Shown one piece after another: positions 31,201 through 61,200 of a stretch of DNA of 64,000 nucleotides. How positions within the stretch are numbered: the stretch's first letter is position 1; every line of letters starts with the position of its first letter. A program made the translations under genes and the position numbers. The notes beneath the pieces were generated by a model. That model saw only the letters and a program-made list of their open reading frames with translations. It did not search any database and had not been told where the DNA came from. This DNA comes from Sphyrna mokarran (lineage: Eukaryota). The stretch is taken from NCBI GenBank assembly GCA_024679065.1, contig JAGIQG010000011.1, forward strand, positions 39,432,001 through 39,496,000, read 5' to 3'.

Positions 31201-34200
31201 TGCAACATTCAAAATAGCTTTGGGTCAGACTCATGGCAACTGTCAGAAGCACAAAACTGCATGCCTGTCTGCCTTTAATCTGCAACGCAAACTGATTTAA
31301 AAATTCCTCCCTCTGTCAAAGTTGAATTTCAGTCCACTTTTTCCAACAAGAAACAGTAGACAGGAAAATCTTAATTTTTTCAAACAGCTGTTCAGAAAGT
31401 GGAATACATTGATGTGGTCAACTAAAATTAAGTGTTCAGTAGCTTTTTTGTATATTTATTTAAAACTCCTTCAATTCTTTCTCTCTCTCAGATTTTTTTT
31501 AAAATGAAAGTCATGCAATTTTCTAGTGCTATGATAAAAGAATAAATGGCTATTCAACCATTTTATAATAAATATTAGTTTATTGGAAATGAAAAGCTAA
31601 TGTTTGGCCTTCTTTTCTGTCATTACTTCAGTTGCCGAGCCTCCTTCCTTCAAGGTGGAGCTGGAACCTTGTGCTGTGAAAGCTGGAGAACCTGCTCGAT
31701 TCTGTGGTGTAATAGTTGGCACACCAAAATTAGAAGTATCTTGGTTCAAAGATAGCCAAAAGCTTTCCTCAGGATTTAAGCGCAAGTTACTTCATGACGA
31801 GAACCAGTACACTTTGTTACTGATTGAAGCACTCCCTGAAGATGCTGGCACCTACACTTGTGAAGCAAAAAATGAAATTGGGGTAGCTGTTAGTAGTGCT
31901 TCACTTGATGTTGAAGGTACAACTGATTGAGTTAATTTATTTGCATGTTAAGTGCTTTGATATATAATCTTTATGTAATATAGACTGTCTGCTGTTAGTT
32001 ATATACAGGTATGGGGGAAATAAAATTACTCTTTGGTAATGGTGTGATATGAGCAATAGCAAATCGCCAGTCTGTTTTGAAAGCAATGGAAAAGAAAATT
32101 GGACACTGTGTTAAATGTACACTTGATGCCTTTTTTGTTATTGCTCATTTTGTCCTACCGTTTCTATAAATAACAGTTGACTTGAGGTTCTGTGCAATTT
32201 AATCAGCGATGAGCTTCTGCCATCTATTAAAATCTTCAAACTTATGTTGGTGCAGCAATGGATTTTCCTTTACTTTGCATAGTTTTCAAATCTTCATTCT
32301 GATAAGCTAAGATGTGCACACAACATTTTATGAATTATTTATTATTTACAGTTCCAGAAGTTGTTTCTCCTGAGGTAGAGGTACCTGTTTATCCACCAAC
32401 CATCGTAAGCCCGATACAGGACACTTCAACCACTGAAGGAAAATCTGCTCAATTTCAGTGCCGCGTCACTGGAACAGGTATGTTCAATATTTATGTTTCA
32501 GTTTCATCTTTCTTATTTCAGTTTCCAACTTCCACCCCTGAAAAGTTGACTTCTGCTAAGGTTTCACAATGCACTTATAATTTAGCCATTGTCTATATTT
32601 ATGAATTCAGCCACTCACCACAGATGGCATCGCAATTAGCTCCCTGTGCCACCTGTCATTTGTACAATGGAAACATTTTATTTTCAAAATTATAACTCAG
32701 GAAGTGGAAAAAGTTAAGGATAATATCCCATACCCAAGGCTCCTAAAAGAGTTATCTGCAGAGATTTGCGGTTATGATTTTGCAAAATCCCCTAGGTTCC
32801 AGTCAACTGGAAGTTGACAAATGTAATTCCATTATTCAAGGAAGGACGAGGAGAAATTAAGGAACTGCAGGCCAGTTGACTTGACATTTATTGTTGGAAA
32901 AATACTGGAATCTATTATTAAGGAAGTCTTAACAATGACTAGACAAAGTCATTAAAGTTTTGCAAAATTGTGCTTGAAATTTTTTTCAGAAGAGCATAGG
33001 TAACAGGAAACCCAGTTGATGTAATATAGTTGGATTTCCAAAAATAATTTGGTAATGTGCCATGCAAAGGTTTAATGTACAAGCTAAAGATTCTTAGAGT
33101 TGAGAGTAATATGTTAGTATAGATAGAGGATAGGTTAGTGGACAGCAAGCAGAGAGTAGGGTTAAAGGAGACATTTTCAAGTTGACTAGCTGTGACTAGT
33201 GGAGTACCACAAGCGCTGGGGCTCAACTATTTACAATCTATATTAATGAATTATACAAATAGATCAAGGGCACGATTCACGCCACACTCCTGCTGTAGCG
33301 AGGTCAGAGAAGGTGAAATAGTTGACCTTGCCACTGCTGGAATGGGGATTTTGTGGCTGGTCTGTCCTTCTAACCCTGGCACACCTGAATATTGCCCTGG
33401 CATAGTGATTTCAGTCAGCCCTGTGATCAAAACCTGGATTCTTGTCTGTCAGCTGTGAAAATTCTGAAGTGGCCAGTTCGCTTTCATCTCCATGTCTCCC
33501 CTGGTCACCTGGCAGGATTTTAAGTCGTTACAGCATTTCATTCGGCAGCCGAGATTTTCCTTTTACTCTGATCAAAGCTGCAGGTGTGAAGTCCTCTGAC
33601 AAAAAGGAAATGTCAATTTCATCTTGGGCATGCGGGGGCTCCATTCTGTACAGTCATGCACTCAGCCCCAATGTGTGCGCACAATTTTGATTTTCTGAGG
33701 TTTCCTAACAAGATGAAATCTTGAAACCTGTCCATTGCACTTGAAGCCTTTGACCTGCAACAAATTCACTCTGCAGTGCCTCATAAAAGGTTCACCTGAC
33801 AACTCAGTGAACTTCTATCTCCCTCCAACCACCTGTGTTTATTTTTATTTGCCTTCACAGTTAAACACCTCAAGTACCTCATTAATCCTGACCACAATGT
33901 TGACAGAATCTAAGCTTGACTGATAGTTTGTGGTTTAGCTTCCTCTTTTGCAAGCCACTTGAAACAGGAAGTTAGACTACAAACTGTAAATCTGGCTTAG
34001 ACTCTGCCGACATTGTGGTCAGGATCAGTGAGGTGCATTCAACCATCTCAGGTGGTTGGATGATGACAGAGACCCATTGAGCTGGCAGCTGAATTTTTTA
34101 CTGGCACTACCCATTGAATTTATTGCAGATCAAGACTTCAAGTGCAATTGAGAGGGTTTCAACAATTTCAGCTTATTGGAAAGTGTCAGCAATTTCAAAT

Positions 34201-37200
34201 TGAAGTTGTGTGCATACATTGAGGCTTAATGCATATGGAGCAGACTGGACTCCCCAGCCCCAGGTGAAATTGACATCTCCTCTCTGTCAGGGAACTTCAA
34301 ATGGGTCTACTCTCACCTGCAGCTTCTGACAGAGAGAAATGAAAACCTCAGTTGCAGAATGGAATGCTGCAATGACTTAAAATCCTCTTAGGTTACCAGG
34401 CAGTATGGAGGTTAAAGTGACATGGTCACTTCAAAGTTTGCACAGCTGACAACCAGAAATGCAGATATTGATAACAGGGTTGCCTAAAATCATCATGCTA
34501 GGGGTGATCTTCATGTCTGCCACAGTCAGAAGGGGCAGTCCAGTCAAGACCATACCACAACAACCCCCCCCCCCCCGCTTACTGATGGAGAGTGGCGAGA
34601 TCAACCATTTGCATCAGCCTTAATTAACCTAAACTCGAGGACCCTTGAGCGATGTATCCTCTGCAGCCTAGCAGCAGCAGAGTGGCAAATGGCCTCCTCG
34701 TGCCCCTTAGAGCCTAAAGCACTAGGTCAGAGTGCCAAGGTGCCAAGGAACAGTTCATTGTGGCACTTCCAAGGTGCATAGCCTGAAGGAAGACTGAGGG
34801 GGAGCTCTGAGGGGGGAGGAGGGCTGTGTGGGGGGAAGGATCTCAGGTGGAAGACACTGAATGTAAGGTCTGAGAGGAGGTGGGTCAGGTCACCTTATGT
34901 CTGCATGGTATTTTGGGGGGAGGAGTTACCCATTAATTGTGGCTAGAGGGAAGGATGCCCCACTTTGTTAGTGCTGCACTGGTCAGTTGCTGAGCAGGGT
35001 GGCGGGGGGTGAGGATTCTATTCAGGGTTTTTTTAATCTGGGATGGGGATCAGGTGGCTGTCTCCTCGCATGGGGATTGGGGAACCCTTTAAAAATATTA
35101 GCCCAGTCTCTGAACAGCGGGGATGATCGGTGGGATGATCAAAATAAATTTATTAGCATCTTTCAGGTAGCATTGTGATGTCGCTTTTTATCTGAAGCGT
35201 TATTCAAATGTACTGTCAGGGATTGGGTTGCTCTTTTGTAGGAAGGCACATACTTGTGCTCAGAAGAAGACCAGATGAATAACATTAGCCTTTGTTAAGG
35301 GCACTTATCATCAGCACAGAGCTGCCAATATTCCCCATTTCCAAGGTTAACGGACTATTCCTATTTAGTCATAAAAACAGAAGGTGAAAAAATTCCTTTT
35401 ATTCAAAAGCAAAAATAAAGTGATTTCATGGCAATACTTGTTCGTCTCTCAGGATAGAAAATGTAACAAAATGGTGACTTTGAAAATCGAAACACCAGGT
35501 TTTACATCAAATGCTAATGGGAAATTTAAGTCTCTGACATTTTAATACCATTTATTTTCCTGTGCCCTTTTTAAGTGGAAACACCATGGAACCCTAATAA
35601 TCTAAGTGTAGATATAAAAACGTTTTGTATATTCTAGGTTAGTATCTAAACCCCCTCTTTGCTATCTAACTGTCTCTAACTGGTTGCACAATTTTAAGGA
35701 GTTTTCAACAAGTCCTTTTCAACCTTTTTTCTTGGCTTGAAATTTATTAATTAAATTTGATCATTCTACATTCGTTGCAGAAGAATTTTCATTTTACAGA
35801 TTTAAAATACATATTAGCACATTGTATTTGCGATTGAAAAGTCTTTCTCATGTGTGAGGATATTTTGGCAAAATGGTTGTTGGAAATGTCAAACTTTTCT
35901 TGTTGGACGTAATACTGAAACAGTTCTATCCTTAATCTAGCCCTGACTGATATTAAAGCTAGCATTATATTGCTTCCAAAAACCCAACTTTTGTATGTGC
36001 CTGTCTCTATCTCTCTTTACTCTTCAAGACATTCTATGAAATCAATCACATTGATCAAACTTTTGGTCATCTGCTTTGATACTTCACAATGCAGAAAGAT
36101 GTTATTCAGTGCATTATATCCTCACTGCTTTTCTACAAGAGCAACTCCACCATTCCAGTCCTTGCCTTTTTGCTGTAGTTTAGTAGTTTTGTTCTTTTCA
36201 GATAATTATCCAATCCCTTTTCAAAGTCATGATCCGCCTCTAAGGGAATGGATTCATTGCGTGGGGGAAAAAAAGCTTTCCTTCATATCACCTTTGCTTC
36301 TTTTATCATTCATCTTAAATCATTGTTTTGTTTCTACCACTAAGGAAACGGTTTCTCCTTATCCACTATGTGCAGTCCACTCATGATTTTAAACAGCTCT
36401 ATCAAATCCAATATAAGCTGTGCCTTCTTGAAAGAGAGCGGCAAGTGCCTCAACCCTGGAAACACTTTGTGCAAATCTTTTCCTGTGCCCTTTCTAAGGC
36501 ATTCACATCCTTAAGTGTAGTGCCCAGAAATGGACACAAAACTCAAACTGAGCTTGAACCAACATTGAAAAAAAATCACCATAAGTTTCTTCATTTTGCT
36601 CTTCATGCCTCTATTTATAAAGATAATTCCAAATATCTTATTAACAGTGTTCTCAACCTACCCTATCATCTTCAACACCTATATCCAGGTGTCTCTTTTC
36701 CTGCACTCACAATTGTAGTATACTCTTTATATTACCTTTCCTTATTCTTCCTACTAAAATGTATCACTTCATACTTCCCTGCAATAAATTTAATCTGTCA
36801 TCTGCCTGTTTTATCATGTCCTCCTGAAGTCTATCACTATCCCCCTCACGGTTTGCAATATTTCCAATTTTGTATCATTTATAAATTTTGAAATATTGTC
36901 CCTCATATCCAAGCCAAGTTCATCAATATAGATCAAGAAAGCAATGGTTGTAATACTGATCCTTGGGGAAGTTCAGTATATACCTTCCTTCAATCTAAAA
37001 AAAACAATTGTTTGCCACTGCTCTTGTTTCCTGTCACTCACTGAACTTCAAATTCATGCTGTCACTGTTCCTTTTATTCTCTGGACTTTAACTTTGCCGA
37101 CAACTCATACATGTTTCACTTGATCAATCATCTTTTGAAAGTCCATGTACATCACATCAACCCTATTACCCAATCAACTCTTTCTGTTACACCATCAAAC

Positions 37201-40200: not shown

Positions 40201-43200
40201 TGGCAGCACTCTGAGCCTGTTTGGCAATAAGCTGAGATTTCATAACTTCAGTTTGAATTTCTACTGTTGTACTGATATGTTGGGGGCCTCTGTTTTGCTA
40301 CAATGGAAGTCAAAGCATCAGACATTGGGCTATGGTTGGGTCCAGAATGTTCTCATGGAATTTGCCACTACTTCCACACTGTAAAGAATGGGCTTCTAGC
40401 TCTGCACAAAACTCATGCCAACTTGGAGTCATACTTCTGCATATTTCTTAATAAGGAGAGGCAGCCTTCCTGGCAAGTCTGGTAATGCTTCAAGCATTTC
40501 TTTCTGCTTGGAAGCTAGACTTGTTGGATGAGGGTAAAGCACGACTTGAGAAGATGGGTGATCAGGAGGAACATAATGTCATCCTCAGTGGATTAAGCCC
40601 TGCCACAGGTCCCTGCTTCAGGAACAACTCTTACACTGCTGGCAAGCACTGTCTCCTCCATGGACATCAGCACATGCAGTTTCCCACACTCCCTTCTCAC
40701 CCCATCCTGGCAGGTGCCAGCTTGTCCTAGGAAGAGAGTAGGAAGTGTGTCTTCGAGTGTAGTGCAAAGTGTTTGAATATTGCGCATGCCACAGTTGAAC
40801 AGCTGGCAGAATGTACAAGTTGTGAGGTGCAAGTGTGCATCTGCAAGCTGCACAGTCACTTGGAAATATTTAGCTGTAACTCTCAGGCTGTGCTGCACTT
40901 CAATCTGTGCTATGCTGAAAATTTGCAGTTCTTTCTCTTGATTGGCTAGCACTTAACCTGTGGATTTCTGCTGTCTTTACAGTGTGGTTCTCTCTCACAC
41001 CACTTCTTTTGTCATTTTTGCTGCTGGGTGTTCCCATTGTTTGTACAGATTACCACTTTCTGACCTTCCTTCTTTTACATAATCAGTTCGTAACCTTAAA
41101 CAATTTTTCTATGTATATTTCAGCTGCATTATTTCAAATTATAAGCACTGCACAGTTATATTATTTGAATTTAATTGTGTTACTTTTAAGTTAATGCTGT
41201 AGCTTATTAAGTTGAAGTTTGTTTGCGAGATTACAGCCAATTCAGAACATTTTGGTGAAACTGCATTTTTTTAAAAATACATTTAGATGTGAAGGTTACA
41301 TGGTATAGTAAGCAGAAGGAGATCAAACAATCGCGATTCTTCAAGATGGTTCAGTTTGAAGATACCTATCAACTGGAAATTGCTGAAGTGTACCCGGAGG
41401 ATGAAGGAATGTATAAATGTGTAGCATCCAACTCTGCTGGAGAGGTGTCGTGCACTGCTAACTTAAAACTGGAAGGTAAATTAATGCATTCTTTATTTTG
41501 GCTTTATATGCTACACATTACATTATTTTTACATTTCTGTTTTCCTGGTCTGAATTTTGAAGCATATTCCTGCCTGTGGTTATTTTCATTGTTGGTAATG
41601 GTTAACATTGCCTGTGGCATTCATTTTTACACTTTAGCACCATTGGGCCAGCAAGCATATTCACTTTTTATGAAAGCATGTGCATTTTGTGCTTGTATTG
41701 CTGAACACCATTCCACCTTGTCTCTGTATCTCCATTGGTTGAAGCATTTCATCCATAATAGATTTCATCAAGCAACTCATCTAGTCTACATTTGTTTCCA
41801 AACCTGTAATAACTCATGACCAGTTCTTTCATCCGCCTCTAAGGTAAACAACTGAGGCTACCAGCTGTGCACTGTGGAATGCCACTATAACACGATTATA
41901 CTTACTAAATAAATTTCTTTTGTAAACAACATTAATATGTTACAACTGTAAATTTATTCAGCAATAAAGCATTGTACTTCATCATTTTGTTTGGATTTTT
42001 TTGTTAGATCTCCTCTTGCAGTGGCTTCAATTTTAAGATTTTTTTCAGTAAACTATAAAATAAGATGAAAGTTTTCATCAAATGCACCCAACTACCTCAA
42101 CCATACAAAGGCACACTAATTTTTAAATGACAAGTATGTGCCTTGACTTTTAATTTACAATGCCAGTCATACAGTGCAAAACCTGATTTCCTTTCCAGGA
42201 TATAGAAAGGTTGATTACATCAAATACATCATATGTCTACGTTTGGCTCTTCTGAAGAAGCAACATGAGTCTAAGTGCTTATCTTTAGTGTCTGCATTTT
42301 AAGTAGGCAAGTGCACATTGGGCTGGCAAGCATATTATATGCAATAGTGTCTGTTGGTCCCAAACCAAAGATCCAAGGATTGCATAGTGGACAGTTAATC
42401 AAGCCAAGTTCTGGTGCTTCATTTTGATAGTCTAAGAACAACAGTATACTTATTACTGATGCAAGAATACAATTAGGATTTCCTTGGTATAGTTCTTGTT
42501 AACTGACTTAGCAATTTCAGCAAAGTACAGCCCACATTGGGCAATATAAATATGCAAAGCATAAATAAACTGTGCTGGCAAAAAAATCTAATAGTGCTAC
42601 ACTTACAGTAAACAATTTACCCTCTGACTAGATATTTGCTGTAATTCTTCCAAATAGTATATTTTTTTTGACTTTGCATTTCATATCACCTCATGTTTCT
42701 AAAACCTGATTCCGTTAACACACAATTTAGAAGCCTTTCATCTTCATCTTCATCTGGAACATTTGCAAGAGAAGAACTAAATCTTCATTTTGTTCAATGA
42801 ATGCCATTTTCTCCCATGGAATTTTGCAGATTTTGTTGAGGAAAAGGAATTGGGAGTTTTCCTCAATCAAGTGAATTGCACCTCTTTAGCATGTGGTTAG
42901 CATGCTGGGTTGCCCTTTGGACAACATGAGCTGTTGCTTTGATTATTTTGTCAGTCATGATTTAATATCATGATTAATACTTTGTCTTTTGTTACTCAGA
43001 TTACAAAGTGCAAAGCATAGATAGTCAGAGCATAACAACTTCTGGAAAAGCTGTAGAGGAATCCATCGCTTCAAAGACTTTTGAAGTATCAGAAATGCAT
43101 GTGGAGTCCCCTGTGACCTTAACGCATACAAAGAACTATACCGAGGAAATCTGTTTGCAGCAAGAACATACATACAGTGTTCAGACATTTGAAAGTATTT

Positions 43201-46200
43201 CCATGAGTTCATCAAGCAAGACAGTTTCCTCTGGAAGTTGGGAAGAATGCCAAAAAATTGCCAAGACGGAAACAGTTAGAAGTGGCTGTCAAAATTCACC
43301 AAAAATCTTGCAAGATCTGAATGATGTCACAGTTTTGTTAGGTCAAACTGCATCTCTAAAATGTCAAATTCTAGCATTGCCTAGACCAGAAATAAAATGG
43401 TATAAAGAAGATCAAGAACTTATGGAAGTTAAGAGAATTAAAATTGTTACTATAACAGAAGATGAAGTTTTGACATCATCTGAATTAATTATACAGCAGA
43501 TCCAAGAAGAAGACACAGGAATTTATAGATGTAAAGCTACAAATCCTTTTGGCGAAGTTAAATGCAAAGCCAAAATAATTGTTACAGCAGCCAAACCTGC
43601 CCTTGAGGTTCCCCTGATTCTCCTTGAACTTAGTGATCTAACAGTGAAGGCTGGTCAGATGGCACAGTTCATCTGTTCTTTTAGCGGGGAATCTTTTACA
43701 GAGGTCATATGGAGTCACGGAAGCAGAAGACTAGAAGAATCAGGAAGACTGAAGATTTCTCAGAATGGAAATGTTATGTCTCTCACTATCCTAAATGTGC
43801 ACTTAGAAGATCAGGGACAGTACAGCTGTACTACAAGAAATGAAAGTGGTGAAAAGAAGACTACTGCTGTACTAATTGTAGAAGGTGGTTGTTTATTATT
43901 TTATTTTCAAACAGCATCCTGATCCATCCACTTCATGTATCTGTTCCAAAATAAGTTTAGTACCTTTTTAAGAAGATCCTAAGTTTACTTATTAATAGTA
44001 AAATGTTCAATTTAAAATGTTTAGCTAGTGACTTATACAAACCTTAACACTTGACACACCAAGTCTGCATGAATTATTGCAAACATTGCCTCTTGCTGTT
44101 ATAATTTTTTCAAGTATTTACTTTGCTGAAATTATTAAATCAGTTAACATTTATCCTAATTTTATTCTTGCATAGCTGAAGAATCAAAACCCAAAACAGG
44201 TGCAAAAATTCCCACTGATAGCAGCTCAGATAGCACAATAACTGAACAAAGACCACATATCACATCTGATAGCACACCAGAAGTACAAAAGAAACCGTCA
44301 AGTCCACCACCATCTTCAACCAAACGGCCAAATGGAAAAGAGAAGCTACGAAGCCGTGACTATTATCCTGACGTTGTGCCCTTTGACGAATTGATAGACA
44401 CTGGAGCCATAGCACCGATGTTCTTAGAAAAGCTGCCTCCAGAAATCATTGTTCAAGATGGAGAAGATGTGTTGTTGTTTTGCATCGTAAAAGGTGTACC
44501 ATCACCTTGTGTACTTTGGCTGTGCAACCAACGCATAGTTGAAGAATCTTCATTGTGTTCCATTAAACATGATGGGTTACTATGCAGTTTAAAAATGCAA
44601 AAAGTCTGCCAAAGGCACAGTGGCACTTATTCATGCAAAGCGGTTAACTCTGCTGGAGAAACAGCGTGCAACACTCTACTTAGAGTGACAGGTTGGCAAT
44701 TGCATGCTTTGGTCCTTCCCAATGTGACTTTATCATGCATCTCAGCACATCCTATGGAAAGATTCTTTGCAGAAAGTCATCTTGTTGACCTGCGGATTAT
44801 TGCATTCATTTTCCTGAAATCAGATTAGGCATGTTGAGGCATGTTTGTTGTTTCAATACACAGCAAATCAGAGAATGATTTTTTTTACAAAATCCTGGAT
44901 TGCCTGAATTATCTTTGTGATTCAGTCAACCAGTTGCTTGGTAAATCCTTCTAGAAATCACAATTAGCGAATATATTTAATTTTTTGGCATGTATGTTTT
45001 GTATGTCTTTGCATATTAAATGTATTTTGAGTTTCATTTTCCTTTTTGCATATTTTATTTTGTGGGAAAAATAGTGATACGTTCTTATAATTATATTCAA
45101 TATTCATTTCCATGCAGAAAAGATTCAAGACAAGATTGAACAACAGATAGAAATGGAAGTGAGAGGTAATACTTTTATCATTATTCAATAAACAATTATT
45201 TAACTTTGCATTTAATGCTAGGTTCGAACAACTGCTATCAACTTTGGTATTTTGCTTATCATGATAAGTTGTGCTGTGTTACAAAGTGTAAAAAAAATTA
45301 CAGGTTGTCTATGCCAATCTGATTTACAAACCCAACTTCTTGTTGTCATTCTCATTTTGACCTAAACAAAAAACCCTTTAACAACAAAAATATTTACTTT
45401 GCAGGAAATGTTATTTTTTAACCAGTATTAATTCCTCATATTTCAGCTGAATTTTAATTTGAAATTGCTCATTGTCATAACTGATACACTGCAAAAGGGA
45501 TAGATAGAGTTACATTCAGTAAGTTGTATTCTAACATGAATTATATAATGAGAAGTGTTTAAATGAACTCTCAAGTATCTGTCATTCAATGATTGAATGC
45601 TGAAAATATATATTTTAGTGGTGATTACTTGAATCAGTACTTTTGTTGTTCTCATTTACTTCTGATTTTCCAATAAATTTTTGATAAAGAACTCACAGGC
45701 AATATGTCATAAAGAAACTTTGACTAGATTCTTTTCCATTTTTAGCATTCATTTTCTTCCATTTTCATGACATCAACCTATCCTCATGTATTTACACTGC
45801 CTTGCAGATAGCAGTATGTGTTCATGTACGCTGGCATTTTTTTGCATAATATTGTGAATCTAGCAACTATATTAGTTCGAATAAACACCTTCTCATGCAA
45901 ATTGGAAGGATTACAGTTGTGGATGAATTTATTTCCATTTATTGATTCCAATTCTAAAAACTATCTCTGTCAAACTGGCTGAAAAATTTACCTGTTGTTG
46001 AAAAAGGATCAGAAAGGGCATTTATTCTGCTGTCTGCAAGTCAGGTAAGATTTGTAATAACCTAGATATCCCCAAATCACAGGGACAGATTTTACATTCA
46101 AAAATAACAAAATTCTGTCATGAGATCACGTTATGCTTTTTTCAAAACATACATTCTAATATGATTTTTGAGAAGAAATTGCAACAGTCTGAAGAAGGAA

Positions 46201-49200
46201 CAAAGAACGAGCGATTTTCCTGCTCAGAATCTTTAAAAAGAAAATGGTCTTGCGTTTATTCGAACAAATATGGTGAGTGAATTTTTTACAATATTTGTGA
46301 AAAAGCTGATCCATTAAGTTCATCATTTCATCATATTATAGATTTGTTCTAAATTTAATTCTTATAATGTTTTGAACTGCCTTTTAAGAAACTTCATACA
46401 AATTATTTCTTTTTTTTACAGAGTTGTTTTTTGATGCTGGGACAGAATATTTGGAAAATCGAGAAAACATGCGTGATGCATTTTCGGATGCCGAAGATTA
46501 TTTAGATCAGGGAATGGTTTCTGCTGATCGTTGTGCAAGCAGAACATCTTCTATAAGTTCTTGGTCTGAGAATTTCAGGCCATCTTTCACTGAAAAGCTC
46601 AAATTCAAATCCGTAATGGAAGGAGAACAAGCTGTTTTTAAATGCAAGTTGGTTGCCAGTCCAGCACCAAAAATTGCATGGTTTCATAACAACAGACCTA
46701 TATGTAAAGATTCAAGAAGGATTATTAAAATAGAAAGCATAATGCACATTCACAACTCAAGTTTGGAAATCAATAATGTAGAAGAGAAAGATTCAGGGAG
46801 TTACAAAATATTTGCAATAAACTCTGAGGGCTCAACAGAGGCAACTGCATCTTTACTCATTGCACTTAAAGAAGAGCAAAATGCAAATTATCTGAGCTTT
46901 GTGAAAAGATCAGAGATGGTTCACGAAAGTATAGACTCTTTAGTTAAGAAGCGGGATGCAAGACTTAGAGTTGATCTCAGACATGTTGGATCACCCTTTG
47001 ATAAGAAATATCAGGTTCAAGGAGCTTTGCGTAAACATTCAAATTCTAAAAGCAAACTGATGCGTACAATGTATTTTGAAAGAACACCAATAAGGCATTA
47101 TCTATATAAGGATAGATCTGCAGAAATACAGTCATCTAAATTATCAGGGAGGGTTTTCGATAAGGATAGCTTAATTGATGAAGATATTAAAATTAAATTG
47201 CAGCTTTTACGTGAAGCTAAAAGGAAAAAAAGATTTTCTCTTGCATTCTCTGAAGCTTCATTTGATCTGGGCACTGCATCGGTTGAAGACAATCTGAAGT
47301 ATAATTATGCATATTTAGACAGGGAGCGCAGCAGAAGTATGGGAGATATTGATCACATCGATTTTGAACCTAGTAAGTCTTATTTTGTGCAAGGACAGGA
47401 GCTGTCTTCTGGTAACTATTTCCAGAGAGAGTCTCCTGAATTTCAGTGTCAAATGGAGCGGGTATCAGGACTTTCTCTACAGGAAGTAGAGCCACAAAGA
47501 GACCTGAAAGAAAATTTTACTGAAGAATCTTCCAAAACAAAAGTCATAAAGTCATTACCAGAGCAATTTCTGAAAGGTAGTTTAATTCAAGAAGCAGAAC
47601 AAGAACAGGAAAGTCAATACAGATTGGAAGAAGAGGAAACCGATAAATGCTATTTTCAAAAGCAAGTTGATGAAAGAGAAGAACCACAGAGTGAACCTTG
47701 TGAAGAACCACAGACATTCTCTAACCAGTGGCTTGAAGGCTTTATTAATATGCAAAGGGATATAATAACAAAGGGGCCTGGAGAGTTGTTTGAGCCTCCC
47801 ACATCAGCAGTTAACGAAACACCAATAATTCAAGAAGCAGCACAGCCTGCAGCCAGTGTTGAATATCCAGAGATTTTACTGAAGGAAAAAGAATCCCCTC
47901 TGTTTGACAGAACACCAATAAAGCAAACTCCAGTGGAATTAAAAGAATGTCCAAGTAAATCTGAGTTGAAGGAAGACCATGAGATATTTTATGACCAGTG
48001 GTCTGAAAGTTTGATTAGTGTGCAGAACTCATTAGTGAAGGAAACTGAAAATAACCAGTCAATATTTGACTATTCCAGAGCAATTGAGATAAGTGGATCC
48101 AGATTTGGTGAACAAGATGACATGGTGAGAGAATCTTCACAAAAACAAATGCCTTCTCCTTTAATAGAAGAAAAAGAAGCCTCTACTCTGTTCAGAACAT
48201 CATTTGATGATAACACTACGGAAATAAGCACAATTTCATGCAGAGTTGAAGACAAAGAAGACCCTAGTGCATCTTTTGACACATGGTCTGGGAATGTCTT
48301 AGTAAAACAGGAGCCTGGATTTGACCACACAATCATTGATCCAACAAAATCCACTTCTGAGGAAAGTGAGATCAACCAAAAAGCAGCACAATTTGAGAAT
48401 GAAGATTATACCCAGATGATAACATCCTCTACTTTGCCAGAGAAAATAGAAACCTCAGAATTTGTCAGCTGCTTGGTGAAAGAAATACCAAAAGAAGTGA
48501 AGCATATTCCATTTAAATCTGATAAGGTGAACTATGGGACAACTGTGGAACATTGGCCTGAGAGATTCATTAGTGTACCTAGTGACTTACTAACTCAAAA
48601 ACCTGGAGATGGTCATAAAATATCTGACCAACCTGCATCAGCAGTCAGGCAGACAGAGGTAGTTAGTATGTCCAAAATCAGGCATAAAACCCTAGAAGAT
48701 GAAGCACAGTTTACAGATTCCAACCATGTTGTGAGACATTCTCCTCTGATAGCAAAAACAAAAGAAACATCAACTTTTACTAGAACAGTGAAAAAACAAA
48801 TTCCAGACGATATAAAAGAACCTCCGTATAAATCTGATATTGAAGAAGAATACGAGTCATCTTTTGATAAAAAGCATGGAAGATTTATTTGTGTGGAGAA
48901 AGACTTTCCAGCAGCAAAATATGAAGATAATCACAAAATCCCACTGACTGATCAAGCCAGATCAGCAATAGATCATGCAGAGGTGATTGATTTATCTAAA
49001 CTCAGTGAAAAAGAGCAGCATAAAGGCAAGGTTGAAGAATTCACTACAATACCAACAATTTGCATACCAGAAAAGAAAGAAACTTCAATATTTGTCAGTT
49101 CACCCATAAGTAAAAGAGCAACAGAAATAAGAGAACCTCCATATAAATCTGAAGTGAAGGATAGTCACCAGATGCCTTCAGAGCAATTTGTCGGAGGTTC

Positions 49201-58200: not shown

Positions 58201-61200
58201 TGGCTAATTAGGGCAAAAGATGTGCTGGTTAGATGCATTGGCCATGCTAAATTCTCCGTCAGTGTATCCAAACAGGTGCAGATATGTGGCAACTAGGGGA
58301 TTTTCGCAGTAAATTCGTTGCAGTGTTAATGTAAGCCTACTTGTAACACTAATAAATAAACATAAAGGAAATCAGCTGCGGTAAAATCATTGAGCCAGTC
58401 CTTCTGACAGCAAATATGGGCTCAGGATCTGCTTTTCACCCTAAAGACAGATCCTGAAGCCCACAGTGAAAAAATGGCCCCACATTCATTTTGGATTGCT
58501 GGATAGTAATTAGGAAAATAATCTTTTTTAGATTTTATGTTGCCATAGCCTGGAGATGCTGAAGTCAATTTTAGCATTTCATTGCTCCCTAGTTAAGAGA
58601 GGTTCAGCATAAATCAGGTTTTGTGTGGCATAGGATTAGACAAATGTTATACTTGTTTCCTGAACTACTGGACCAGATCCTGGCTTAGTAAATTGTTATC
58701 ATGTAAACCAGCATGGGTTTGACAACATTGAGTTATCAGATGATTGGCAAGGTTTACAAATGAAAACTGTTATTTTTCATTCTGAAACTTGGCAGACTAT
58801 GAAATTATCAGACAGATAGTATTATTATTAAGGTAAAAGTAAGAATGCATTTTTCTCTTAGTTTGCTTGTGATATGACTTACTGCTCAAATGTGATTTAT
58901 TTGATTGAAACATTTGTATTTCTGTGATGGAATAAAATTTATATTAGAAATTACTCAAGCCTTTAGAACATTTCTAGCATGCAAAACAATTTTGTATACT
59001 GATAATTAATACCAACATGACTACCTTGTAATGGAATTTTGTAAAATTCTTATGGCAAGATGGTTACTGAGTTAGTTTTTACTCATTTTGATTCAGAAAT
59101 GGAGAATATTGATGTGACATAAAATCATTTTTATCTGTAAGTAGTTACTCTGGCTTTTCAGAAGATATGTAATATCTACAAATCTCAGTAAGTTTTAAGT
59201 TAAATGGTTTGATTTTGACTTGAGAAATGAAGGCAAGTTTTTTTTTATTTTGCTTGTAAGCTGTTCAAAATAGCTTGAGGCAAAATTTTTCTCTTGCTTT
59301 GGACTAATTCTATTCACAATTAATGGATCTGATTGTATGTTTTAGTTAAAGATAAATCTTTGAGATAAACTATTACAGAATTGTATTCTTTTGAGGCAAT
59401 TTGAACTTAGCATGCAAAGTTATGTGATTAATTTTTGTGATTATTTTCAGTTTCCAGTACTAAGAAACGTCACTCACCATCAACGCGCATTCTAAATTTA
59501 AGCATCTTATTTCTTATACAGAATTTTCTAGCTCTGTTACCGTCGCTGCTGAAGATAAGAGGGAAGATTTCTACAGTAGTGACCTCCATGTGTCAGATCA
59601 AACATTTGAACTCAAACCTGAAACAGCACCGCTTTCCAGCATTTTAGACATAGAAGCTAAGCCTTTAAAAGCAATACCAGCATTTGTTAAAAGCATTTCC
59701 AGTATAGAGGTAGTTGTGGAAGATGTAGCTAAATTCACTGTGACAATAACTGGATTCCCCAAACCCTCTATTCATTGGTTTCATAATAGTAAAAAATTGA
59801 CTCCTTCATCAAATTGCAAATTTATTTATGATAGGGATGAATATAGTCTAATTATACCTTATGCAAAATTTACAGATGAGGGAGAATATACTTGCTCAGC
59901 TGCTAATATGCTTGGAACAACTTCATGTAGTGCATATCTGAAGATCAAACCAAAAGAAGGTATGGCAGGGTTTAGGACATCAGCTTCAAAACCTCCAGTT
60001 GCAAAACCGACAGATAAAAAAATAAGCAAAGAGACATTCTCAAAGGAAATTATGTCAACTATTCCAACAGAAACCATACATACCCTTAGAGGTCAGCCAC
60101 CACATTTTTTCAAAGAACTTAAATCTTTGCAGTGCCCAGAAGGTCTGCCTGCTAAATTTGACTATATAGTGAAAGGTGAGCCAATGCCAGAAGTGCTTTG
60201 GTATAAGGAAAACGATCAGATTCACCAGAGTGTGCAATGCAATCTTAGATCCAATCCTGATGGCTCTGGTTCATTAACTATCAATAATGCACAAAAAGAG
60301 GACAGTGGTTTATATTCCTGCAAAGCTTTTAACTCACTTGGTGAAACAACTTGCACTGCAGAGCTAATTGTATTCAGTGGCACTTTTGCTACTGTTGAAC
60401 ATAAGAAACAGGAAGTAGCTCAAAAGCACCATACTAAGTCATACACAAAGACTGTTGGTGACCACGCCACAGAATCACGTTTATTCATGGTAAAGTTACC
60501 TGGTGAGGCTCAGGCTGAATTACAAGACAAAGATCAACTGGTGTACACAATAGCTTCTGAAGGTAAACATTCGGTTCACAGTGAGCAGACAGGCACATTG
60601 CATGATGTGACTGTTTCTGCTGCAGAAACAGCAATTGCAGGAAAGAAACAGATAATAATGCATTCACAAACTACACAAGAAAGTCTGGGTTATATAGAGC
60701 AACATTATGAACCAATTAAAAGTCCACCAGTATTTGAATTATCAAGCACTGAAGTACAATTAGATTCTACCCTTTGTTTGCCCACAATTGAGGAGAAAAC
60801 TTTAATTCCAAAGGAAGGCAGTTTTAGTGTCAGAGATTCATCTACTATAGATACTAAGACAAAGACAAAAGAAACAAGCATCTTGTCTGTGGAAAAGCAT
60901 CTAATTCCCAGCTCCAGGACTGTTGTAGAGAAAGGAATATCAAAAACAGAGCCAGCATACTCTTTGCACAGCTATAAGGTTGAGGGAGATCAAGGACCAC
61001 CCAAAGAGACATTGCTTGGTTTTGAAATTCCTGCATTACAGAAATGTGAAATACAAAAAGAAAGAAAAATGGAGGTTCATACAGCTGTAGCAATGGAACA
61101 GAACAAAATAAAGCATGAAATGGCAGAAGACATACAAATGTTAGATGAAACAAGAGAAGCAAAATCATTTAAAGAAAAACCAGAACCATTCTTGATGACT

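Follow-up and report, generated by a model that had tools for sequence, protein, structure and literature searches.

Exon 45 of titin (Novex-1) is, according to the accessible text of PMC5852582, the most conserved Novex exon of bony vertebrates; it has been amplified from heart RNA of several species and measures 375 nt in chicken, 372 nt in the lizard, and 390 nt in zebrafish, and the function of the Novex variants is left open in the same text. For a cartilaginous fish, the accessible sections of PMC12241362 report Novex-I, -II, and -III in the connectin of the elephant shark (cDNA LC422595), with Novex-I included in skeletal muscle cDNA and a variant without Novex-I also described. A term search of the accessible part of PMC12198301 gave no mention of Novex, and the literature searched, which covered few subscription papers, contained neither a report of Novex-1 loss in sharks nor a paper on “novex-4”. 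A second kind of described system concerns templated insertions, i.e., short inverted copies of template DNA close by, joined through short overlaps (PMC8421209, in the part accessible); template switching and insertions of this type are also treated in the accessible parts of PMC5453318 and PMC7954356.

In the present work, we analysed a window of 64,000 nucleotides from Sphyrna mokarran, which holds the 5' part of the shark titin gene, from the Z-disc region to N2B. Four of the 23 listed runs were compared with it: X2 (same species, other sample) and X4, X12, and X13 (relatives). No run was recorded as RNA, and X2 and X13 were judged to be RNA by their GT..AG joints. The exon order is exon 44, Novex-1 remnant, Novex-2, an extra Ig exon, exon 47, and Novex-3, and the features of the region are the following (Table 1 is that of PMC5852582):

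32352..32477, forward strand: titin exon 43; 126 nt, the length in Table 1; in X2, the loose end joined to exon 44 coincides with the end of this exon
41287..41475, forward strand: titin exon 44; 189 nt, as in 8/8 species of Table 1; donor used in X2 and X13
41963..41984, forward strand: putative poly(A) signal and cleavage site of intron 44, lying before the remnant; AATAAA at 41963-41968
42160..42198, forward strand: surviving 3' splice site of the putative Novex-1; pyrimidine tract and AG in the sequence, unjoined in X2 and X13
42199..42295, forward strand: decayed N-terminal part of the putative Novex-1 (weak); starts with GYRKVD, against GFKNVE in finch
42296..42610, forward strand: decayed Ig domain of the putative Novex-1, from the profile alignment; frame broken several times, TAA in frame, core Trp gone
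42405..42406, forward strand: site of a 5-base deletion found in this species only; X13, X4, and X12 all have five extra bases
42459..42527, forward strand: composite inverted insertion, apparently templated, in three pieces; matches downstream DNA
43000..43884, forward strand: Novex-2 exon, a unique stretch plus two Ig domains, intact; two I-set hits, both joints in X2 and X13
43131..43151, reverse strand: apparent source of the second insertion piece, within Novex-2; inverted match
44119..44173, reverse strand: apparent template of the outer pieces, in the 3' splice region preceding 44176; inverted match
44176..44691, forward strand: extra Ig exon after Novex-2, intact; I-set hit, acceptor used in X2 and X13
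45118..45165, forward strand: exon 47; 48 nt, within the range of 45-57 nt in Table 1
46422..46800, forward strand: start of the Novex-3 exon, which continues beyond; 54% identity with the bat Novex-3 titin P0043

The flanking exons are well recognizable. Exon 44 encodes the second half of an Ig domain and shares 66-77% identity with amniote titins, and exon 47 resembles the short linker that follows exon 44 in amniote titins. Novex-2 (43000-43884) shares 83% identity with the Heptranchias perlo model and 57-61% with elephant shark fragments, its second Ig domain grouping with the bird Novex-2 Ig in both alignment and tree; the extra Ig exon (44176..44691) shares about 51% identity with the bird models P0125 and P0280. 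The remnant thus lies, as the first-pass annotation had proposed, in the place of Novex-1, between the 189-nt exon 44 upstream and Novex-2 at 43000.

Like the bony-vertebrate exon 45 as far as PMC5852582 describes it, the shark sequence lies between exon 44 and Novex-2, appears to start in phase 1, and carries the same Ig motifs; the bony-vertebrate exon, however, is open over 372-390 nt, whereas the shark remnant is broken, lacks the core Trp and the donor, and is skipped. The elephant shark, too, has Novex exons, but its Novex-I is reported as expressed in the accessible text of PMC12241362. The antiquity previously suggested for Novex-1, i.e., an origin before the split between cartilaginous and bony fish, is already in print there, provided that this Novex-I corresponds to exon 45; from what that text provides, it may be either the true exon 45 or the orthologue of Novex-2.

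Concerning the state of the remnant, all the fragments quoted in the first-pass annotation were found in place. QVHIG...GQLIKP, ILITDA, HIGQYK, and SATLTV belong to one frame, VLHFD to a second, and CKA*INCAG to a third, with a further one-base slip between HFD and ILITDA. The profile alignment located frame breaks near 42405-42413, 42548, 42562-42564 (TAA), and 42589, and an insertion of 56-64 bases. The acceptor is indeed good, being intact with its AG at 42197-42198, and the phase-1 reading from it runs into a stop (TAA 42300) after about 34 codons. The loss of the core Trp, the stops, and the frameshifts were all confirmed: the Trp position reads GGA (42377-42379), an in-frame TAA lies at 42562, and the frame is broken several times. 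The splice donor consensus spans nine positions; no GT occurs at the position where a donor is expected (about 42621), in agreement with the earlier impression that a convincing donor is absent, and the GTs between 42594 and 42714 match at most five of the nine positions, against eight for the donor of exon 44 and seven for that of Novex-2. The remnant has an acceptor but neither the 372-390 nt of open frame nor the core Trp and the donor, and cannot be classed as a functional exon.

Probing Pfam with the single frames of the remnant retrieved no family in any of the three (3/3 frames); for this reason, segments from bony vertebrates were used as references. These were seven complete segments lying directly after exon 44, from finch (P0255), lizard (P0264), and five teleosts including eel (P0267), obtained from a search with the bird titin exons 43-44 (120 of its 146 matches being listed). 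Their lengths, counted by hand, are 125 residues in finch, 124 in lizard, and 130 in eel; these lengths, equal to those published for exon 45, and the position directly after exon 44 identify the seven segments as Novex-1.

The frameshift-aware alignment of positions 42199-42620 gave a mean score of 69.9 with the seven bony-vertebrate Novex-1 segments, compared to 26.6 (±2.4) for dinucleotide shuffles, none of which (0/500) reached that value (maximum 38.7), in line with the first-pass assignment. The N-terminal part alone (42198-42295) is not significant, since 42/500 shuffles reach its score. The best of 302 minus-strand tiles scored 36.1, and the remnant tile ranked 33rd of 604, all the higher ones being plus-strand tiles, where the intact Ig exons lie. 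When 196 of 280 proteins were scored (near-duplicate mammals and birds having been dropped), Novex-1 occupied ranks 1, 2, 3, 5, 6, 8, and 26. At a frameshift cost of 15, and with the insertion retained, the Novex-1 hits (56-76) were interspersed with two unrelated Ig stretches scoring 71 and 70. With the insertion taken out and a cost of 10, all eight whole Novex-1 segments were the top eight of 2327 peaks in 202 sequences, scoring 82-106 against 76 for the best other peak; at a cost of 15, one non-Novex-1 peak (76) outscored two of the eight. The best match is therefore Novex-1 and not a different Ig domain, with a narrower margin at the higher cost.

Moreover, a read-through of the remnant, with X at the breaks, shares 37-47% identity with the seven references and gave 45.8-60.1 bits with all of them (7/7), compared to 37.4 for the best other sequence and 26.2 for the N2B Ig of the window. 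In a tree from a quick IQ-TREE search (73 of 209 Ig rows), the remnant and the seven Novex-1 segments form one group (SH-aLRT 99), the remnant having a branch of 1.55 versus 0.04-0.24 for the intact Novex-1 tips. A Novex-1 profile guided the framing of the read-through that entered both tree and BLAST, and the placement of long branches such as this one is unreliable; the peak ranking therefore represents the fairer test. Finch and lizard Novex-1 carry motifs similar to those quoted in the first-pass annotation. Overall, position, best match, and tree support the orthology of the remnant with titin exon 45, as judged from sequence comparison.

Other searches were less informative. In the PDB sequence search with a single-frame reading, the best titin match was another titin Ig, weak (E 0.1); in all, two weak hits to titin and one to a lectin repeat (E 0.0036) were obtained and taken as chance. 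The word-based protein search with the main frame of the remnant returned four candidates, none of which was scored, and the search of representative proteins with the Heptranchias model P0002 gave no Novex-1 among the 150 matches listed. No intact exon 45 sequence of a cartilaginous fish was found in the protein searches and the metagenome scan, the latter, directed at host DNA with Novex-2, yielding 177 pattern matches, none confirmed.

The comparison with the relatives revealed that X4, X12, and X13, which differ from the window by about 3%, harbor the same broken sequence, with the insertion present in 3/3. All of them have five extra bases after 42405, which bring VLHFD into frame with the preceding strand and give PRKVLVLHFD, in register with PTKNVVFHFD of Novex-1; since all three keep these bases, the 5-base deletion is private to this species, and it is the youngest frame break. 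In X4, all 43 gap letters are explained by the listed indels, and only the 5-base site falls inside the remnant; therefore, the other frame breaks predate the split from X4. In X12 and X13, the gap letters (15, and 25 in the X13 contig) are too few for the insertion to be missing. Relative to X13, 16 listed differences fall in the 415 bases of the remnant and 15 in 500 bases of the flanking intron, so the former is no less divergent. Lesions common to species and no sign of constraint are what a fossil exon displays.

Some alleles of the relatives, read by hand, are nearer to the Novex-1 consensus (Gln in place of the stop at 42272, Pro at about 42278-42279, and Asn at 42386), Gln (42272) and Pro (about 42279) being the consensus of the first strand; those at 42324 and 42572 are not nearer. 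Consensus-like alleles in relatives are as expected from continued decay. No difference from the relatives was seen at the Trp codon in the 40 of 147 substitution rows listed. The inactivation proposed for this lineage thus holds insofar as the exon is dead here; it is not private, however, as most lesions are common to the relatives and the Heptranchias model looks broken. Novex-1 was lost before several shark species split.

As for the transcripts, X2 and X13 both show the joints 41475-43000 and 43884-44176, bounded by GT..AG, and no joint to 42199 exists in the assembled contigs of either run. The exclusion from RNA that had been predicted was observed in 2/2 spliced runs, in assembled contigs of unknown tissue from which rare forms are dropped. 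X13 includes one unspliced contig over the remnant, at a depth of 13.9, whereas the joined form and Novex-2 stand at 693-957; the depth of contigs is, however, a poor measure of expression. X2 has no cover at 41992-42945, and skipping rests on the joint across this interval, not on the missing cover.

The insertion of about 60 bp had been correctly noticed in the first-pass annotation, which missed its apparent origin as a locally templated inverted copy. Its first piece matches the reverse complement of 44173-44153 at 20/21 positions, the middle one that of 43151-43131, inside Novex-2, at 20/21, and the last one that of 44149-44119 at 28/31, with E values of 3.5e-6 and 0.002 within the window. 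The pieces overlap by 3-5 bases at the joins, and the templates lie 0.7 and 1.7 kb downstream on the opposite strand. Inverted matches within 2.5 kb are frequent, being found for 22/927 tiles (12 from one foldback and three from the insertion); this one is nevertheless telling because it fills a gap found independently by protein alignment. A nearby inverted match together with microhomology at the joins points to template switching at microhomology, and the repair pathways behind such an event are indistinguishable from sequence. The insertion shares with the described cases (PMC8421209, in the part accessible) the short inverted copy of a nearby template and the short overlaps; unlike them, it would be an old case fixed in the shark germline, built of three pieces from two templates about 1 kb apart. 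Five of 73 positions differ from the templates, and this species differs from its relatives by about 3%, which would make the insertion, very roughly and with a wide margin, about twice as old as the split from the relatives. We discarded a transposon fragment as the source, since the local templates explain the length of the insertion. Elsewhere in the remnant, 42316-42336 matches 41641-41661 of intron 44 directly over 21 bases (19/21, E 0.02); this is perhaps a second templated patch, or chance.

On the basis of these data, we consider it very probable that the remnant is an exon 45 orthologue inherited from the jawed-vertebrate ancestor, which ceased to be needed in this shark lineage and decayed as an intron, the insertion having arisen by template switching. 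Novex-1 would be an optional, frame-preserving cassette, the loss of whose inclusion leaves the rest of titin intact, and as such it would have been free to drift. Donor loss is the likeliest reason for the observed skipping, though not necessarily the first lesion. Later, as we infer for the order of events, the polymerase would have switched template to the opposite strand downstream and left the insertion, probably after the death of the exon, because the remnant branch is far longer than the insertion divergence.

In principle, the remnant might derive from another titin Ig exon, e.g., as a decayed copy of the first N2B Ig or of the Ig exon at 31.6 kb: the tiles at 59503 and 31651 are the most Novex-1-like in the window, and the remnant scores 61-62 with the N2B Ig domains of fish. 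However, the remnant DNA matches no other exon of the window beyond the insertion templates, the read-through prefers all seven Novex-1 segments (45.8-60.1 bits) to the N2B Ig of the window (26.2), from which the tree also separates it, and PRKVLVLHFD of the relatives is in register with Novex-1; this derivation is highly improbable and largely ruled out. A functional exon, with breaks due to misassembly or confined to a single animal, could be argued for on the grounds that X2, the independent sample of the species, does not cover the remnant and that the comparison was made on contigs instead of raw reads; we give this next to no weight, as it is refuted by the lesions common to relatives, given that X4, X12, and X13 hold the same broken sequence and insertion at about 3% difference, and the spliced contigs skip the remnant. 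An RNA element might also have been kept where the protein code is dead: either the insertion would pair with the 3' splice region preceding 44176 and so tune the use of Novex-2 and of the exon that starts there, or the surviving acceptor would serve as a decoy or poison exon. The predicted duplex between the insertion and 44119-44173 reaches -55.5 kcal/mol and covers the pyrimidine tract to the AG; among 6395 window segments, the best duplexes fall at the template, compared to -37.7 elsewhere (second template aside) and a mean of -17.3 (±4.3). Furthermore, the base of the relatives at 42470 improves the match to the template, and in the Heptranchias model a splice leads from within the remnant to Novex-2. 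Nonetheless, complementarity follows from the inverted-copy origin itself, both spliced runs use the 44176 acceptor, divergence from X13 is no lower in the remnant than in the flanking intron, and no compensatory change appears in the 40 of 147 substitution rows listed, so that we infer the absence of an RNA role and regard a kept element as improbable. A fuller version, in which sharks lost Novex-1 and chimaeras and bony vertebrates kept it, while the pairing of the insertion, with a 3' splice site 1.6 kb downstream of it, tunes the use of Novex-2 and the next Ig exon, would likewise be a long shot.

Under the preferred reading, the decay of an exon 45 orthologue, the loss may have occurred once, in the ancestor of all sharks, or separately here and in Heptranchias. 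The first 18 residues of the Heptranchias model P0002 (XP_067843003.1) follow the remnant in the Ig frame, nine being identical to the window, and the next 11 follow it in a shifted frame, with six identical. Read in the Ig frame, the shifted part must continue with Trp, whatever synonymous codons are used, and the strand after this Trp is compatible with finch and lizard Novex-1; judging from this model, Heptranchias appears to keep the Trp codon with one extra base before it. The implied extra base speaks for a single shark-wide loss, as does the match of only 9/18 residues, compared to 83-87% identity in the next two exons. Yet P0002 reveals no lesion common to the window and Heptranchias; the latter keeps the Trp codon, Phe, and Ser-Gly and looks less decayed; and the basis is one predicted protein, in which an assembly or model error is possible. 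We thus put a single loss at slightly under an even chance.

The fossil exon represents a fresh case of a familiar process, exon decay, the new aspects being the loss in sharks and the templated insertion. These sharks would be natural knock-outs of a conserved titin segment kept by bony fish, lizards, and birds, and Novex-1 would be dispensable for working heart and skeletal muscle in the fish group that lost it; a natural comparison is offered by the elephant shark, which uses Novex-I in skeletal muscle according to the accessible text of PMC12241362. The insertion would also provide a datable record of template switching in the shark germline. One exon and a familiar decay process limit the reach of these findings to specialists of titin and genome evolution. 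For annotation, the Novex region of Heptranchias (P0002) has been entered as a gene of its own, “myosin light chain kinase-like”, which starts inside the remnant, and the bird equivalents of P0002 are named “myopalladin-like” or “VSIG10-like”.

A different observation concerns intron 44, where RNA contigs of X2 (at a depth of 39.6, compared to 16.2 for Novex-2) and of X13 extend over positions 41476-41984. In X13, a loose end of 20 A follows 41984, 16 bases after AATAAA, at a point where the window has no A run. This looks like an alternative 3' end; the resulting titin would stop after exon 44 and be shorter than Novex-3. In the window, the read-on frame spans 113 codons, and a one-base insertion at 41591 shifts it in 3/3 relatives. 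Intron-44 retention is reported in pig, chicken, and mouse in the accessible text of PMC5852582; the literature searched, covering few subscription papers, included no paper on intronic polyadenylation with Novex.

Further observations concern the neighboring exons. Novex-2 has two Ig domains in the window, in Heptranchias, and in the elephant shark fragments, versus one in the bird models compared. The Ig exon between Novex-2 and exon 47 (44176-44828) does not appear in the standard exon table; this shark, Heptranchias, and birds all have it intact, with a similar read-on tail, and it may act as a terminal exon, reading on to a stop near 44828. The human protein A0A0U1RRH3 (P0257) ends, directly after exon 44, in a short stretch resembling the start of this exon. 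Between exon 47 and Novex-3, a short open stretch ending at a good donor (46169-46273) may correspond to exon 48' as described in the accessible part of PMC5852582. Finally, intron 43 contains a foldback inverted repeat of about 1.1 kb (33397-34501), with arms 73-81% alike, and a stretch of 66 codons at 15423-15620 repeats part of the large exon just downstream, which is 88% identical to human titin where repeated, and then breaks off; it looks like a partial intronic duplicate.
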